Assembly (NCBI GenBank): GCA_963700275.1
Contig: CAVOWZ010000001.1
Coordinates: forward strand, 344,151 to 408,150
Direction of reading: 5' to 3'
Source of the DNA: an uncultured Bacteroidales bacterium
Lineage (GTDB): Bacteria; Bacteroidota; Bacteroidia; Bacteroidales; VadinHA17
Length of the DNA: 64,000 nt
Positions 16,536 to 26,275 of the stretch are shown here, piece by piece. The notes beneath the pieces are model-generated. The model was not told the origin of the DNA. It saw only the letters and a program-made list of their open reading frames with translations, and searched no databases. The position numbers and the translations under genes were made by a program. The stretch's first letter is position 1, and every line of letters begins with the position of its first letter.

Positions 16536-17056
16536 CTAGCCGTCAGACTAAGGAGTTTTGGGGATAAAAGTTTGAACAATTTCGGGTTCCTGAAACACAA
16601 ACCTGTTCTCGAACCTTAGAACAGTGAATCCCAATGCTTCAAGATATTTGTCCCTGGTAATATCTTTCAGGATCTGTATTGAATCCCCATGAGGATCTCC
16701 ATCAAGTTCAATTATCAGCTTTTCTGATGGACAATAGAAATCAACTATATAATTACCGATACTTTGCTGTCTTCTGAATTTTCTTCCTTCAAGATTCTTT
16801 GACTTTAGGTATTTCCATAAAACAGATTCAGCAGAAGTGGACTTATTTCTCAGATATGTTCTGAGCGGTTTGAGACTTTTTCGGTTGAAGAGGTGATTGT
16901 TATCCATTAAAATAAAAGTAATAAGAAAATAGATCAACCACCCCGGCCAGAAAATTTATATTTCTGCACGTTAGATGATTTTGTGGTCTGGCCACCCCTC
17001 CTTAAAAAAAGGAGGGGAAACTTTTGTGCCCAAAACTACGTAGGTTTACGGATATG
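16536..17056 (-). mobile_element. Gene-bearing (putatively autonomous) member of the MITE family, copy C
   Basis: Same TIRs and 5' hairpin module as copies A, B, E and F, but it encloses the DUF559 ORF. The ORF stop and last codons lie inside the TIR. Confidence 0.75.
16548..16907 (-). CDS. DUF559 endonuclease-domain protein (Vsr / PD-(D/E)xK-like fold)
   Basis: LRNKSTSAESVLWKYLK...YIVDFYCPSEKLIIELDGDPH...VLRF is the DUF559 signature. ATG at 16907 preferred over the TTG at 16937, which lies in the hairpin module. Confidence 0.85.
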   Translation of the reverse strand: MDNNHLFNRKSLKPLRTYLRNKSTSAESVLWKYLKSKNLEGRKFRRQQSIGNYIVDFYCPSEKLIIELDGDPHGDSIQILKDITRDKYLEALGFTVLRFENRFVFQEPEIVQTFIPKTP

Positions 17057-17164
17057 GTACTGGGAGGGGAAGGGGGTGGGTTTTTAGCGCAGGGCTGTGA
17101 GCGATGAGCAATAAGTAGTGAGATTATTTCAGCCCCAGCAGATCCATAATCCCGTTAATGAAGG

Positions 17165-17878
17165 TCAGCGGATGGCAGGGATTTCCCGGAACAAACAAAT
17201 CAATATGAGTTTATCGATAAAGTCCCTATTGATGGCCGGAGAATCTGCGAACATTCCTCCGCTGATGGCATCTGTTCCTGCAAGAATGATGATCTTAGGT
17301 TCGGGAACTGCATCCCAGGTTATCTGTAATGCTTCTGACATATTCTCAGTTACCGGACCGGTTATAACTATACCGTCAGCATGCCGGGGAGAAGCAACAA
17401 ATTCAATACCGTAACGTCCCATATCGAAATTCACATTTCCGGCAGCATTCAGTTCCATCTCGCAGGAATTGTCACCACCGGCCGAAACCTGTCTGAGTTT
17501 TAGTGATCGTTTAAATAACTTTCTGACCTCTTTCCTTATCAGTTCCTCATTCAGCCTCAGGGGATTTTCATCCCCGGGATGGATGATCAGTCCGTTTCGT
17601 GTATTTGCCGATATCCTGAAATCGTTAGTAAATCTGATCTTCCCCGGACATACAAAAGAACACTCCCGGCAAAAGACGCACCGTCCGAGATCAATTGACC
17701 CTGATTCCGGATCTATTGCTCCTGACGGACACAAAGATGAGACCTTCCTGATATCATCTTTACTGATATCGCGTTCAATTACCGGCTGTCCCCGGAATAA
17801 TGGTGATACAGGCTGGGTGCGAAGGTTTTTCACATATTGTACGCCATGACTTTTAATGACTTTTATTCCTCTAAGCAT
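17165..17878 (-). CDS. NuoB/HycG-like small subunit with an N-terminal ferredoxin-like segment, and atypical cluster ligands
   Basis: CVFCRECSFVCP (one 4Fe-4S motif), then the NuoB-like core ASPRHADGIVITGPVT. See the finding on Cys-to-Asp changes. Confidence 0.8.
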   Translation of the reverse strand: MLRGIKVIKSHGVQYVKNLRTQPVSPLFRGQPVIERDISKDDIRKVSSLCPSGAIDPESGSIDLGRCVFCRECSFVCPGKIRFTNDFRISANTRNGLIIHPGDENPLRLNEELIRKEVRKLFKRSLKLRQVSAGGDNSCEMELNAAGNVNFDMGRYGIEFVASPRHADGIVITGPVTENMSEALQITWDAVPEPKIIILAGTDAISGGMFADSPAINRDFIDKLILICLFREIPAIR

Positions 17879-21469: not shown

Positions 21470-22381
21470 TCAGATCAGTTTATCGGTTGATATGAGGATT
21501 ATTACAAAAGCCAGCAGAGCAATAAAAGAAAGGGTAAGAATGAATTTGGGATTCTTATTCATCTTATTACGGGCCCTGAATGACTCCGTGAGACCAATTA
21601 TCAGTGCAAACAGAACCTGAATTGCAAGAAACAGTCCGATCTGGAGAAAAATATTCCAGCCCGCAGGGACTATTACATTAAATATCAGAGTGCCATATAT
21701 CGCAAATTTCAGATATGTTCCTATGTGAATAAGAGCTTTATCGAAACCGCTGTTATCAAGTATCATCACCTCGTGGATCATTGTAAGTTCAAGGTGAGTC
21801 TTAGGATCGTCGACCGGCAGTCTGCTGTTTTCAATAAGGGCTATCTGAAGCAGTAAATAGAATCCCAGTATCCCATAGATCAGCACATACTGGCTTCCGG
21901 AAATATAAAAATGACTGAATATTTCCGTGAAGGAAGTATACCCTGTCAGCATTGCGAAAGTGCCCATCAGTATGAAAAATGCCGGTTCAAGAAGCATTGA
22001 GAAGAATGCTTCGCGATTGGCGCCCATACCTTCAAAACTGCTTCCGGTATCAAGGGCTGCAATTATCATAAAGAATTTGCCCAAAGCAAGCATGTAAGAA
22101 AAAAATACAAAATCGCCATCGAAGGATATCAGGGAATTCTGATTGGCAAAGGGGATAAGCAGGGCGGCGCAGAAAATTGAAGAAAGTGTCACAACAGGTG
22201 CGATCTGAAAGATTATCCCGCTTGTGGTGCTGAAAACGCTACCCTTTCTCAGAAGGACAATAATATCGCGAACAGGCTGCAATATCCCGGGACCTTTCCT
22301 TCCTGAAGAAATACTCTTTGTTCTCAGAATAACTCCGGGAAACAGAAAGGAGACGAAAACTATAAGTAAAATCCCGGACAT
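21470..22381 (-). CDS. HycD/HyfC/NuoH-like membrane subunit
   Basis: 303-aa polytopic protein with a NuoH-type profile, in a tight operon. Confidence 0.75.
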   Translation of the reverse strand: MSGILLIVFVSFLFPGVILRTKSISSGRKGPGILQPVRDIIVLLRKGSVFSTTSGIIFQIAPVVTLSSIFCAALLIPFANQNSLISFDGDFVFFSYMLALGKFFMIIAALDTGSSFEGMGANREAFFSMLLEPAFFILMGTFAMLTGYTSFTEIFSHFYISGSQYVLIYGILGFYLLLQIALIENSRLPVDDPKTHLELTMIHEVMILDNSGFDKALIHIGTYLKFAIYGTLIFNVIVPAGWNIFLQIGLFLAIQVLFALIIGLTESFRARNKMNKNPKFILTLSFIALLAFVIILISTDKLI

Positions 22382-22383
22382 TT

Positions 22384-24375
22384 TCAGATAATCTTTAAAT
22401 AAGTCAGTAAAAAAACAACCAGCATAAAAATAAAGGCATACAGGATGTAGTGTTGTATAAGTCCGGTCTGCATCACAGCTATTTTTTTAAGAAGATCAGA
22501 AATCCATCCCATTGGTTTGTCAATAAGAAGCTTTTTAATAATATCATCGCTCTGTGATTCGAAGGTTCTCCCGGCAGGAAAAATCTCATCCTGTCCGATC
22601 TCCTTCATAATTTTCTTTGTCTGCAGAAGAGGCTTTGCAAGGTGATTGTAATTATATGCAAATGATGTTGAGGTATATTGTTGTCTGGCAGATGGGGCAG
22701 TATATCCGCATCCCCAAGTAGGTCCGGCAGTAACCTGTCTTAACTTCAGGTGATAGTGCCGGTAAATAAGCATTGCTGTGACGGAAAGCAAAAATATACC
22801 GCTCAGAATACTGATCATGGCAAGGTTATTAAGCGCCGGTCCGTATGTAATTGCCAGGCCGGGAAGGCTGAATGCTTCTGTAACTATTCCGGTTAAAGGC
22901 TTTACGAACCATACAGATGCAAGTCCGATCAGTAAAATAAACACAACAGGTATTATCTGGGGCAAAAGCATGATCCGTGAGACTTCGGAAGCTTTTGAAG
23001 CTTTTTCTGAACGGGCTTCACCCAGGAATGCGATCCCGAATGCTTTTGTAAAGCAAAATATTGCAAGTCCGCCTATAAGGGAAAGTCCGGCGATAACAAC
23101 TATCAGCATGATTGACTGGTAAAGATTTGAAGCTGACAGACTGTTAAACATCCCCATATAAATAAGGTATTCTGATATAAATCCGTTAAAAGGGGGTAAA
23201 CCGCAGATTGCAAGGGAGCCGATCAGGAACAATGCTGCGGTGTATGGCATCTTCTTCATCAGTCCGCCCAGGTTCTCTATATTTCTGGTATGTGCAGCCT
23301 GATAAACGGATCCGGCGCTGAAGAAAAGCAGCGATTTGAACAGAGAATGATTCAGCACATGTAATAATCCGCCGCTGAAACCGCAAAGAGCGAGAAGATT
23401 ATTGTTTGTTGCAATGCCGATTACACCTGTTCCGATACCTATTCCGATTATTCCGATGTTCTCAATGCTGTGATAAGCAAGAAGCCGTTTCAGGTCGTGC
23501 TGTACAATTGCCATCATCACCCCCAGAACACCTGAGATAAGGGAAATGACCAGGATTATCACTCCGATCAGAAGAAGATCGTGCTGTAAAGGTATAATGA
23601 CCCTGATTATTCCGTAAATACCCATTTTGATCATTACACCCGACATTACACCCGATACATGGGAAGGGGCTGCAGGATGAGCCTCAGGAAGCCATGTATG
23701 CAAAGGAATAAAACCAGCTTTAATTGCAAATCCGATGAAGAAAAGCATGAAAAGAAGGATGTTTGAATTACCGGAAAAATAAAGTTCCAGAGCATCAAAA
23801 CTCATTTTGCCGGTTGCCCTTTCAACCAGTAAGAAGGCAATTAACAGGAAAAACATACCGGCGTGCATCTGGATCAGATAGCTGATACCAGTCTTCATGA
23901 TTGACCGTTTTTCCGCTTCAAAAATCACAAGAAAAAAGGAAGACAGCGCCATTATTTCCCATGCTATCAGAAAATACAGACCACTGCGTAACATAACTAC
24001 CATAAGCATTGATAAACATAGCCACAGGTAGGAGAAATAATGTATCGAGAAGCGCAGATTTTTACTGCTTTGTTCATAGGGTGCAAGGTATCCCCTGGCA
24101 TAAAGAAATCCGGTAAAAACTGTTATATTTATAACAATAATAAAAAACGCTGAAAGCCTGTCGATAATAAATATTAAACTCTCACCGGGAAAATCGAAGG
24201 GAGCATTTATTTTTATCAGTCCGTCACTTCCGGAAAATATCTGAAAACTCCAGAATGTTGTCAGTAAAACAATACTTAAGAGCAGAAAAAGAGTATAGTA
24301 GTATTTTAAGGATCGCGGGATTATAAAAATGGCAAACGACAGGAAAATGATTAGCAGAAACAAAATGGCACTCAT
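22384..24375 (-). CDS. HyfB/HycC/NuoL-like antiporter subunit
   Basis: WEIMALSSFFLV, LAYHSIENIG and a C-terminal GPTWGCGY region as in HycC/HyfB. Start moved to MSAILFLL (ATG at 24375) to avoid overlap with the divergent gene. Confidence 0.8.
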   Translation of the reverse strand: MSAILFLLIIFLSFAIFIIPRSLKYYYTLFLLLSIVLLTTFWSFQIFSGSDGLIKINAPFDFPGESLIFIIDRLSAFFIIVINITVFTGFLYARGYLAPYEQSSKNLRFSIHYFSYLWLCLSMLMVVMLRSGLYFLIAWEIMALSSFFLVIFEAEKRSIMKTGISYLIQMHAGMFFLLIAFLLVERATGKMSFDALELYFSGNSNILLFMLFFIGFAIKAGFIPLHTWLPEAHPAAPSHVSGVMSGVMIKMGIYGIIRVIIPLQHDLLLIGVIILVISLISGVLGVMMAIVQHDLKRLLAYHSIENIGIIGIGIGTGVIGIATNNNLLALCGFSGGLLHVLNHSLFKSLLFFSAGSVYQAAHTRNIENLGGLMKKMPYTAALFLIGSLAICGLPPFNGFISEYLIYMGMFNSLSASNLYQSIMLIVVIAGLSLIGGLAIFCFTKAFGIAFLGEARSEKASKASEVSRIMLLPQIIPVVFILLIGLASVWFVKPLTGIVTEAFSLPGLAITYGPALNNLAMISILSGIFLLSVTAMLIYRHYHLKLRQVTAGPTWGCGYTAPSARQQYTSTSFAYNYNHLAKPLLQTKKIMKEIGQDEIFPAGRTFESQSDDIIKKLLIDKPMGWISDLLKKIAVMQTGLIQHYILYAFIFMLVVFLLTYLKII

Positions 24376-24430
24376 CGGTATATTTAAATGATTGCGATTG
24401 GTGGCGCAAAAGTAAAAAAAAATCAAATAA

Positions 24431-26275
24431 ATGCTCAATAAGCGGGAAATAAAGATCGACAGCCTCAATGAAAGTGTGTGGGGAGACCGGTATTCAGATA
24501 ATAAACCACTTATAAAGAAAGCCTTACGTTTACTGAAAGATGCGGGTAAGATAAACTATTCAAGGGGAATTGCTTATGCAAATCTGAATATTGCAGCACT
24601 GAATTTTCTGAATTCAAGGAATGATGCTGCACTCAAATCTCTGTCAGATTCATTTCAATGGTTCAGGAACAAAAAGAAGGAAAAAGGATATGTTCGCTAC
24701 CTCCTTTTAAAGGGAAATATCCTTGAAAGCTTCGGTCATTATGATAAGACTTTAAAGTTATGGCTTGAAGCATATAATATCTCCCGCGAAACAGAAGACA
24801 GGGAATCTGAGGCAGAAGCATGTAATCAGCTTGGCCTGATATGGCTGAGGCTGGGTAATTATAAAAGATCACTGGAATTTTTTAACAAGGGGCTTGAAAT
24901 AAGGGAGATCCTTCATGATGAAAATGCCCTTGCCTCTTCCTGTAACAGGATCGGTATGGTTCTGAGAGAAATGAAAAAATATAATGAGTCGATCGATTAT
25001 TACTTCAGGAGCCTAGAAATAAGAAAAAGGAATAATCAGACCTCGGCAATTCAGTGGACTCTTCTGGGCATTGCAAGCACATATGAAAGAATGAAGAAAT
25101 TCCCGGAATCCCTTGGCTATTATGAACAGGGAGCCAGGGATGGCGACAGGCGATGCATGCTTCAGTGCATAATGGGTGCAGGTCGTGTGCAAAGCCGTCT
25201 GGGAAATGCTGATGATGCGGAACAGAAACTTAAGGAAGCTCTCAGGATTGCAGGGGAGCTGAAATCACTTGCGCTTATGGCAGAGGCTCATCTTGCTTTA
25301 GCGAATCACTATGAACTGAATAAGCAACCTCTGAAAGCATTGAGAAGCTTCAGACACTATTTGAAATCCAGGGAAGCGTTTCAAAGTAAAGTAATGCAGA
25401 ACCGGCTCAGCAGTATTGAAGTAGCACACGCAATTGAAAAATCGGAACAGGAAAGAGAGATTTACAGGCTAAAGCATGTTGAACTGAAAACCGCTTATGA
25501 CATCATTGATGAAAAAAATAAGGATATAACTGCCAATATCAGCTATGCAAGCCGCATCCAGATGGCAGTTCTTCCGGATCCCGGCGAAATACCCGTTATG
25601 AAGAAAAATTGCTTTATCCTTTATATCCCGAAAGATGTGATAGGAGGTGATTTTTACTGGTTTTCAGGGATAGACGACAAACATGTGATCGTTGTTGCCG
25701 ATTGTACTGGTCATGGAGTGCCAGGCGCACTGATGAGCATTCTCGGGATTTCCTTTCTTGAAGAAATAATAAACAACAGAAGGATCACCGAACCCGATCT
25801 GATACTTAATGAACTAAGCCTGAAGGTGATATCAGCCCTGAAACAAAAAGGTGAGAGAAATGAAACAAAAGACGGTATGGATATCTCTGTCTGCGTAATA
25901 GACCGGGTTAAGAGTTCACTTCAGTTTTCAGGAGCTCATAATAATCTTTACCTGATAAGCAACAAAGAGCTGAAAGAATACAGTGCCGACCGGTTATCGG
26001 TAGGGTATTCTGATGAACCCGGAGCCACTTTCTCGAGTCAGACAATCGGCATCAGCCGCGGCGATATTATTTATATGTCTACAGATGGCTATACCGATCA
26101 GTTTGGAGGTAAAGAGCATAAACGATATAAGTCGCAGGCTTTCAAATCGCTGCTGCTGAAAATTCATGACAGGCCGCTGCCGGAGCAGAAGAAAAGGCTG
26201 GAGAAGGAGTTTAACCGCTGGAAAGGAAAGAATATTCAGACTGACGATGTCCTTGTATTAGGAATGATCCTGTAA
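24431..26275 (+). CDS. TPR-repeat protein with a C-terminal SpoIIE/PP2C-type serine phosphatase domain
   Basis: Multiple TPR-like repeats, then SRIQMAVLP, GGDFYWF, VADCTGHGVPGALMS and DGYTDQFGG. Confidence 0.8.
   Translation: MLNKREIKIDSLNESVWGDRYSDNKPLIKKALRLLKDAGKINYSRGIAYANLNIAALNFLNSRNDAALKSLSDSFQWFRNKKKEKGYVRYLLLKGNILESFGHYDKTLKLWLEAYNISRETEDRESEAEACNQLGLIWLRLGNYKRSLEFFNKGLEIREILHDENALASSCNRIGMVLREMKKYNESIDYYFRSLEIRKRNNQTSAIQWTLLGIASTYERMKKFPESLGYYEQGARDGDRRCMLQCIMGAGRVQSRLGNADDAEQKLKEALRIAGELKSLALMAEAHLALANHYELNKQPLKALRSFRHYLKSREAFQSKVMQNRLSSIEVAHAIEKSEQEREIYRLKHVELKTAYDIIDEKNKDITANISYASRIQMAVLPDPGEIPVMKKNCFILYIPKDVIGGDFYWFSGIDDKHVIVVADCTGHGVPGALMSILGISFLEEIINNRRITEPDLILNELSLKVISALKQKGERNETKDGMDISVCVIDRVKSSLQFSGAHNNLYLISNKELKEYSADRLSVGYSDEPGATFSSQTIGISRGDIIYMSTDGYTDQFGGKEHKRYKSQAFKSLLLKIHDRPLPEQKKRLEKEFNRWKGKNIQTDDVLVLGMIL

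Follow-up and report, generated by a model that had tools for sequence, protein, structure and literature searches.

Ehr complexes (Ech-related, i.e. energy-converting-hydrogenase-related) are relatives of the group-4 hydrogenases without the ligands of the [NiFe] centre (PMC6349859, PMC7304191, PMC10284858, PMC7894505, PMC4758237), and their function is unknown (PMC10284858, PMC7304191). The name goes back to EhrA-D, L and S of Geobacter sulfurreducens (Coppi, as cited in PMC7894505), the complexes were surveyed by Marreiros et al. 2013 (as cited in PMC6349859 and PMC4758237), and a clade specific to the Candidate Phyla Radiation (CPR), whose large subunits have no metal-binding Cys residues, was reported by Jaffe et al. 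2020 (PMC7304191). Neither the complexes nor the lack of [NiFe] ligands in their large subunits is new. The five papers listed first do not mention the ligands of the small subunit, and in the literature covered, which did not include the founding papers (Coppi 2005 and Marreiros 2013), we found no description of small subunits with an Asp-lined, cluster-less site. The locus analysed here lies in a stretch of 64,000 nt (the window) from the genome of an uncultured Bacteroidales bacterium and comprises six genes, the last of which codes for a small subunit that is probably of this kind. The overall best explanation of our observations, and one that we regard as probable, is that this gene represents a cluster-less Ehr small subunit with a rebuilt polar pocket and a broken canonical electron wire.

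Former cluster ligands and the retained ferredoxin-like site

The gene and the positions discussed below are:

17124..17878, minus strand: EhrS-like small subunit gene, 251 aa if the frameshift is read through
17660..17731, minus strand: codons of C50(P) and C67-x2-C70-x2-C73, four invariant Cys, a single predicted [4Fe-4S] site
17462..17473, minus strand: D136-N-S138-C139, the former proximal-cluster CxxC, with Asp as ligand 1 and a residual Cys as ligand 2
17270..17272, minus strand: D203 (GTDAISGG), former ligand 3 (GxCxxxGG)
17208..17209, minus strand: 1-nt gap relative to orthologues, from a DNA alignment with two relatives; out of frame downstream
17181..17183, minus strand: Asn, former ligand 4 (VPGNPCHP vs PGCPP), coded in the shifted frame

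HMMER alignments to the solved chains of MbhJ (6cfw_J), HycG (7z0s_G) and Nqo6 (2fug_6) were used to map the ligands of the proximal cluster. Ligands 1 and 2, found in SGSCNGCDIE of MbhJ and GGCNGCEIE of HycG, correspond to D136 and C139 in AGGDNSCEME of the window family, and the tandem C45 and C46 of Nqo6 align with S138 and C139. Ligand 3 (GACPTGG in MbhJ, GACGNSGG in HycG) corresponds to D203 in GTDAISGG, and ligand 4 (PGCPPRP in MbhJ, PGCPPTP in HycG) to N233 in PGNPCHP. The preliminary description of this DNA had placed Asp at two of the four ligand positions, and the alignments bear this out for ligands 1 and 3. Its fourth motif, 'LICLFR' with a Cys, is out-of-frame sequence: the true C-terminus contains VPGNPCHPLTF, with Asn at the ligand-4 position, and the ligand set as read from the alignments is for this reason D, C, D, N and not the D, C, D, C that had been derived from the frameshifted tail.

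The frameshift itself is evident from several comparisons. The uninterrupted open reading frame (ORF) of the small subunit spans 17165..17878 on the minus strand and codes for 237 aa, and Pfam recognises an Oxidored_q6/NuoB domain at residues 137-215 (54 bits, cut-off 27) together with a weak Fer4 match at residues 62-78, within a Fer4-like segment of residues 50-79. The best homologues are 250-252 aa long and align over no more than 94% of the window protein, which departs from its orthologues after 'FIDK'; the adjacent frame encodes HIDLFVPGNPCHPLTFINGIMDLLGLK, followed by a stop, and this is the C-terminus of the orthologues. In the whole-genome search the match in the genome's own assembly is split in two (residues 1-224 and 224-251), and a single open frame is found in 17 congeners and in one genome from another family. 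At the gap the window reads GATAAAC-TCATATT vs GATGAACACCATATC and CATCATATT in the two relatives, and the site is not homopolymeric. The full gene is predicted to extend over 17124..17878 because of the C-terminus in the neighbouring frame and the 1-nt gap with respect to the relatives. The shift removes the last 28 residues of the window copy, and the missing base may be either an assembly error or a real, recent inactivation. A programmed frameshift was considered and rejected as unlikely: the site lacks a slippery sequence, and the shift is shared by none of the orthologues, all of which are single-frame. Peculiar to the window are this 1-nt frameshift and the misread ligand 4 that results from it.

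Conservation of the former ligand positions was counted over 119 orthologue-cluster representatives (identity >= 69%). D136, N137 and N233 are kept in all 119, S138 in 117, and D203 in 118, with Glu in the remaining one. C139 is less constant (108 C, 6 S, 4 A and 1 T), and two positions further on from N233 the residue varies (I, A, V, C, L or M), with Cys in 14 of the 119 only. Judged from these alignments, the conservation of D136, D203 and N233 far exceeds chance, and the Asp residues, on whose conservation among Bacteroidota orthologues the preliminary description had staked its reading, are indeed conserved. The set D136, C139, D203, N233 departs from that of the group-4 [NiFe]-hydrogenase small subunits (CxxC ... 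GxCxxxGG ... PGCPP); compared with complex I NuoB (tandem CC, C, C) the family has S138/C139, then D and N; and the three-Cys-plus-Asp pattern known from the Pyrococcus furiosus ferredoxin is absent, at most one Cys being present and that one dispensable in the orthologues.

An AlphaFold2 model of an intact orthologue (P0002) was obtained with a mean pLDDT of 91.4 and a pTM of 0.89, confidence being lowest (73-81) at residues 131-150, i.e. in the first ligand loop and the following helix. Foldseek matched the model to HycG (E 9e-10) as well as to NuoB/PSST and MbhJ (target-normalised TM mostly 0.64-0.83, root-mean-square deviation (rmsd) 2.1-3.3 A, ~133 residues). Taken from the ligand positions, the cluster has very probably been lost at the former N2 site. 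This agrees with the first of two options given in the preliminary description, namely loss of the N2-equivalent cluster and a broken electron path, which fits the single dispensable Cys at most, the Asn at ligand 4 and the sister lineages with four Cys (see below).

The N-terminal domain tells a related story. Four Cys residues (C50, C67, C70 and C73) are present in all 119 representatives, and correspond to the fourth Cys of motif I and the first three Cys of motif II of the ferredoxin domain; C77 is kept in only 16 of the 119. Motif II aligns with that of E. coli NuoI (RCIFCGLCEEACP vs RCVFCRECSFACP), motif I of P. furiosus MbhN (CVGCRMCVTVCP) aligns with 'ISKDDIRKVSALCP', and the domain as a whole matches motifs I and II of MbhN. 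The first three Cys of motif I are missing, so the domain lacks the eight-Cys pattern of the 2x[4Fe-4S] ferredoxins NuoI and HycF, and the NCBIfam NuoI profile yields 32 bits vs a cut-off of 113. In 2x[4Fe-4S] folds each cluster is held by three Cys of one motif and the 'CP' Cys of the other; because of this cross-motif ligation, the four invariant Cys are expected to form exactly one cluster. In complex I the neighbour of N2 is N6b, to which we take the retained site to correspond on the basis of the Nqo9 assignment in the Thermus thermophilus structure; the residue offsets in the NuoI/MbhN alignment agree with this. The CxxCxxCxxxCP plus lone CP noted in the preliminary description are present in this copy, but only the four Cys named above are invariant; it is the lone CP Cys together with CxxCxxC, and not the seemingly complete motif, that is conserved. 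The proposal that the small subunit has a reduced HycF/NuoI-like module joined to it holds on the strength of the NuoI and MbhN alignments, and the ferredoxin-NuoB fusion turns out to be a trait of the whole EhrS family rather than of the window protein alone.

Operon context, distribution and origin of the presumed cluster-less state

The small-subunit gene closes a compact array of six minus-strand genes, which runs from 24468 down to 17124. The five upstream genes, all of them intact, are:

22384..24468, minus strand: HyfB/NuoL-like antiporter-type subunit, 694 aa as listed
21470..22381, minus strand: NuoH/HycD-like membrane subunit, 303 aa, with many conserved acidic residues
20851..21465, minus strand: HyfE-like membrane subunit, 204 aa
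19420..20847, minus strand: HyfF/MbhH/NuoN-like antiporter-type subunit, 475 aa
17896..19410, minus strand: NuoC-NuoD/HycE-like large subunit, 504 aa, without [NiFe] ligands

The HyfB-like frame as listed begins with TTG and is ~31 codons longer than its orthologues (660-676 aa); its real start is probably the ATG at 24375, which gives 663 aa. Pfam or NCBIfam models match all six proteins, and none of the six reaches a curated NCBIfam cut-off (NuoB: 83, cut-off 116; NuoD: 160, cut-off 360; hydrogenase-4 subunit B: 547, cut-off 667). In the large subunit the CxxC of HycE is replaced by A204 and T207 (DRVCGICGFAH vs ESIAGDTSAGH) and the C-terminal Cys pair by Ser and Gly (DPCYSCTDR vs NLSYCGNDL). 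His38 and Tyr87 of T. thermophilus Nqo4 are quinone-site residues and Arg84 lies near N2; R84, Y87 and H38 correspond here to S202, G205 and I155. Because both residue sets are absent, the pocket of the large subunit is predicted to be neither a [NiFe] site nor a complex I quinone site. The membrane arm seems intact: the HyfF-like subunit keeps E123 (transmembrane helix TM5), K209 (TM7), K288 and K327 (TM12), which align with MbhH and MbsH. By gene content and residue patterns, the operon is assigned to the six-gene Ehr complexes and its small subunit to the EhrS type.

A profile search of 1.8 billion representatives returned 177 proteins at E <= 1e-30, of which the best 150 were classified. 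Among these 150, many are Fer4-NuoB fusions with the full set of four Cys ligands (CCCC) and one or two ferredoxin clusters, and others are Cys-poor, with DCDN, DTDN, D[IV]EA, DIDD, DVDS, DDDS, DSSD, DAAD or ECED at the ligand positions; DIDD, DVDS, DDDS, DAAD and ECED are cluster-less variants from remote branches. A scan of species-representative genomes yielded 80 loci, all with the same six- or seven-gene operon. The [NiFe] Cys set was found in none of the 71 large subunits whose full motif region was recovered; of the other nine loci, five had only the C-terminal pair (non-Cys) and four lacked a large subunit on the contig. Conserved in the large subunits of related loci are the motifs E[ST]IAGD[TS]xxGH and SFNLSYCGHDL.

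Thirty of the 80 loci have CCCC together with one or two ferredoxin clusters, and their hosts are Gastranaerophilales/Melainabacteria, Planctomycetota, Ignavibacteriota, Spirochaetota, Aminicenantes, Acidobacteriota and some Bacteroidota. Another 47 loci, all from Bacteroidota (Bacteroidales, Prolixibacteraceae, Flavobacteriales, Saprospiraceae, Lentimicrobiaceae, Paludibacter and Rikenellaceae/Alistipes), show the pattern D-x-D/E-N/A; Isosphaeraceae have DSDN and DTDS, and one Opitutae genome has DVCW. Only columns 136, 138, 203 and 233 of the small subunit separate the 47 Bacteroidota sequences from the 30 with CCCC. A compensating change in the large subunit was not detected: of its 11 clade-specific columns, none is common to the independent loss in Isosphaeraceae. 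In the cluster-less and the CCCC clades alike, the antiporter-like subunits have a conserved Glu in TM5 and conserved Lys in TM7, TM8 and TM12, and the NuoH-like subunit keeps 19 charged residues.

For a maximum-likelihood tree the small and large subunits were concatenated and the ligand columns masked. In this tree the 48 rows of the Bacteroidota type form one branch (SH-aLRT, the Shimodaira-Hasegawa-like approximate likelihood-ratio test, 100%), and the Isosphaeraceae and Opitutae sequences are nested in a separate, fully supported clade of CCCC sequences of the planctomycete type. A single origin was rejected in a topology test whose constrained group was chosen after inspection of the tree: forcing the cluster-less rows together costs 259.5 log-likelihood units (p-AU, approximately unbiased test, 2e-60). 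Since the sister lineages carry CCCC, a normal cluster is reconstructed as the ancestral state, and the cluster-less state would have arisen at least twice, with Asp at position 1 each time. Read along the family, the clusters appear to have been lost stepwise, from three to two to one.

Further sampling of the planctomycete order revealed canonical CACCC and CGCCC sequences alongside a drifting series (DSSDN, DSGAD, DSACN, DSTDS, DAAEF, DSADN, DASND, ESACN, DSACS, NAEEW and NAEDW), all members of which keep five ferredoxin Cys. Asp136, and often Ser138, recur; positions 203 and 233 are tightly fixed in Bacteroidota only. The change from Cys to Asp or to Asn takes two nucleotide substitutions each, and residues one step from Cys (W, F, S, G) occur in the younger planctomycete series. 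In the order around Isosphaeraceae (L095-L119) the positions run from CCCC through W/F/S/G to D/E/N, as if cluster loss were caught in mid-course.

An orthologue at E <= 1e-99 is present in 17 of 24 congeneric genomes, and in 13 of 250 evenly drawn high-quality Bacteroidota genomes (12 of 126 genera, ~5%), gut Alistipes included; in both sets the orthologues are intact single frames of 250 to ~280 aa with no stops. Clustering of the flanking ORFs of the 80 loci revealed no conserved partner gene beside the Bacteroidota operons.

Several features of gene order were recorded in the same loci. An HTH (helix-turn-helix) protein of ~228 aa, with a C-terminus that by eye resembles EIIA of the phosphotransferase system (PTS), is encoded directly upstream of 12 Ehr operons (L062-L064, L068, L081, L082, L084, L087, L089, L091-L093; e.g. 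L092:1519-2307), ten of them Cys-complete and the other two (L082, L089) from cluster-less Isosphaeraceae; the cluster-less operons of Bacteroidota lack such a neighbour. Many Bacteroidota Ehr operons contain a tandem HyfB-like pair and hence seven genes (L023, L026, L027, L033, L035, L040, L042, L043 and L050 among them), and the window and its closest relatives have one such gene. A Spirochaetota locus (L058) shows the permuted order Large-Small-HyfB-NuoH-HyfE-HyfF.

Contig 7 of the host genome (L001:3-2067, minus strand) encodes an Ech-type group-4 [NiFe] hydrogenase whose ligand sets are complete (CNNC, GACG and PGCPP in the small subunit, RICGICSTSH in the large one). About 72 kb upstream of the window (contig 1, L002:983-3497) there is a group-3 [NiFe] hydrogenase with an MvhD-like gene, a small subunit of 324 aa and the large-subunit motifs RLEGH and KICGVCPGCH. 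Because of these two hydrogenases, Fe-S and [NiFe] ligand sets can be said to be intact at other loci of this genome. The rpoB and rpoC family models had no match in the assembly (4.94 Mb, 22 contigs, 80% complete), so that a core region of the genome must be missing from it. Around the operon, a DUF559 (Vsr-like) cassette at 16536-17056 (ORF 16548..16937, minus strand) lies ~70 bp downstream of the stop at 17124; in a syntenic relative (L094) a gamma-glutamyltranspeptidase gene follows 327 bp past the small-subunit stop. On the other side, divergent from the Ehr operon, 24431-26275 on the plus strand codes for a 614-aa protein with repeats of the TPR (tetratricopeptide repeat) kind and a SpoIIE/PP2C-like C-terminus, both recognised by eye.

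Possible roles of the polar pocket

We propose that the ancestral subunit carried three [4Fe-4S] clusters, two in the fused HycF/NuoI-like domain and one N2-like proximal cluster in the NuoB fold. In the Bacteroidota state the middle cluster alone could still be bound, by C50, C67, C70 and C73, and the proximal site would have been rebuilt from the oxygen donors D136, S138, D203 and N233, with C139 as a dispensable addition. The canonical path from donor through N6a, N6b and N2 to the active site would then be cut on both sides of the remaining cluster, because the N2-type site is lost and the large subunit has neither [NiFe] nor quinone-site residues. In complex I the edge-to-edge distances are ~10 Å from N6b to N2 and ~12 Å from N2 to the quinone; the lone cluster would lie more than 20 Å from the pocket, and thus too far for useful electron transfer. 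The two carboxylates would most probably make up for the net negative charge that went with the [4Fe-4S](Cys)4 centre, and could tie the three ligand loops together, possibly via a hard cation. We speculate that the complex may still move ions by means of its intact antiporter-like arm, not driven by electrons that reach the large-subunit pocket, and that the lone cluster might serve as a structural element or as a redox sensor. Ion translocation without redox drive is a part of this proposal on which we are nearly evenly divided, with a slight leaning against it. The full combination, in which the acid-lined pocket is a selected replacement of the N2-type cluster (as a fixed negative charge or as a cation site), the complex is an ion translocator without electron transfer to the 'active site', and the lone [4Fe-4S] either senses redox state or oxygen or pins the structure, is offered as a tentative idea that we consider doubtful.

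Three other explanations were weighed. The preliminary description had entertained, as its second option, a cluster still held at the former N2 site by mixed Cys/Asp ligation (to which Asn and Ser might be added), and single Asp ligands to [4Fe-4S] are indeed established elsewhere, in the Pyrococcus furiosus ferredoxin and in the NB cluster of DPOR (dark-operative protochlorophyllide oxidoreductase); here, too, the invariant D136 and D203 sit exactly at ligand positions. However, the D, C, D, C set behind this option came from the frameshifted reading, the sole Cys is S, A or T in 11 of the 119 orthologue representatives, and relatives display D,(A/S/T/V/I),D/E,N/A; since A, V, T, S or I stands in place of the Cys in many loci (DADN, DVDN, DTDN, D[IV]EA), many members would need a cluster without any thiolate ligand. 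With ligand 4 being Asn, or Ala in Alistipes, and with Phe, Trp, Ala or Gly at ligand positions of planctomycete relatives, mixed ligation is hardly credible. Nor does the frameshift, although it deprives the window copy of its last 28 residues and although cluster after cluster was lost in the family, make a decaying, useless operon a convincing account of the ligand losses. Pseudogenisation is at odds with the stop-free ORFs of the 17 congeners and of the 13 Bacteroidota genomes, with 50-70% identity across orders and only four clade-specific columns that differ, with the intactness of the other five genes in the window and with the conserved charged residues of the membrane subunits; it may apply to the window copy, and for the family we consider it very improbable.

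A newly evolved, specific site for a hard cation (Mg2+, Ca2+, Mn2+ or Na+), which could staple the loops or take part in coupling and would be more than a filler of charge or space, is the third alternative, and is compatible with a cluster-less subunit with a rebuilt polar pocket. All four donors (Asp, Ser, Asp, Asn) would be oxygen atoms at positions that converge in the homologues, the pocket residues are near-invariant across Bacteroidota, C->D at 136 and G->S at 138 recur in independent lineages, and the Cys->Asp and Cys->Asn replacements each had to pay for two nucleotide changes. On the other hand, the planctomycete lineage shows a wide range of residues at 203 and 233, positions that are E and A in Alistipes, and a convergent partner change in the large subunit was not seen. 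From sequence patterns of this kind we regard a specific cation site as unlikely, though clearly less so than mixed ligation or decay.

Loss of the cluster and its replacement by a polar pocket remain the reading that we prefer, and several points weigh against it. The absence of the cluster is read from sequence alone, and the strict D/S/D/N of Bacteroidota is likewise compatible with a new specific cofactor or metal site. One planctomycete order drifts at the four positions (D/E/N; S/A; D/A/C/N/E/S; N/D/S/F/W), which speaks for a looser role as polar filler rather than for a precise new site. Whether or not the proximal cluster is present, the pocket motifs of the large subunit are conserved to the same degree; conservation of the lone cluster is 100%, so that redox chemistry might still matter; and no conserved partner gene adjoins the Bacteroidota operons among the 80 loci. 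Finally, the window copy is frameshifted, and the subunit may be non-functional in this strain.

It is debated how complex I and its hydrogenase relatives use redox chemistry at the N2/quinone site, or at the [NiFe] site, to pump ions. The family is widespread and has kept the coupling and membrane machinery, with the active-site metals and the adjacent cluster lost and carboxylates convergently placed. If the complex is active, it would reveal what this machinery is capable of without an electron wire; if the carboxylates imitate the cluster's charge, they would point to an electrostatic role of N2; and if the acid pocket is a functional replacement, the family would be a natural experiment that separates complex I coupling from redox chemistry. 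As to annotation, these proteins should not be labelled as NuoB, as hydrogenase-3 small subunit or as hydrogenase-4.

Comparison with known systems

The closest described systems are the Ehr complexes, with which the locus shares the HyfB/NuoL-, NuoH-, HyfE- and HyfF-like subunits, the small subunit and a large subunit without the [NiFe] Cys. It differs in that, in the Bacteroidota clade, the proximal cluster (D/S/D/N) and one of the ferredoxin clusters are probably gone as well. Geobacter EhrS itself is presumably a ferredoxin-NuoB fusion as well. More remote Asp-lined representatives (P0185, P0229, P0233, P0236 and P0245) show D..D..D/S patterns, and belong to different subfamilies, with HycG-like 'PGDPP' motifs.

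In sequence as well as in fold, the best matches are HycG (7z0s/7z0t; E 9e-20) and MbhJ (6cfw; E 4e-21). HycG and HycF of E. coli formate hydrogenlyase, and MbhJ and MbhN of P. furiosus MBH, are separate proteins that together hold three clusters and feed a [NiFe] site, whereas the small subunit of the window is a fusion with one predicted cluster remaining and no [NiFe] site to serve. NuoB/Nqo6 of complex I has the same fold (target-normalised TM 0.7-0.8, rmsd 2.2-2.8 A, ~133 residues), and the SPRHAD and GG motifs are kept; the N2 ligands and the counterparts of His38, Tyr87 and Arg84 are absent here, and the NuoB and NuoD scores are far below the cut-offs. The Mrp-type Na+/H+ antiporters share with the antiporter-like subunits the Glu of TM5 and the Lys of TM7 and TM12, but have no NuoB/NuoD/NuoH-like peripheral module. 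By analogy, if no redox drive exists, the complex would act like an Mrp module.

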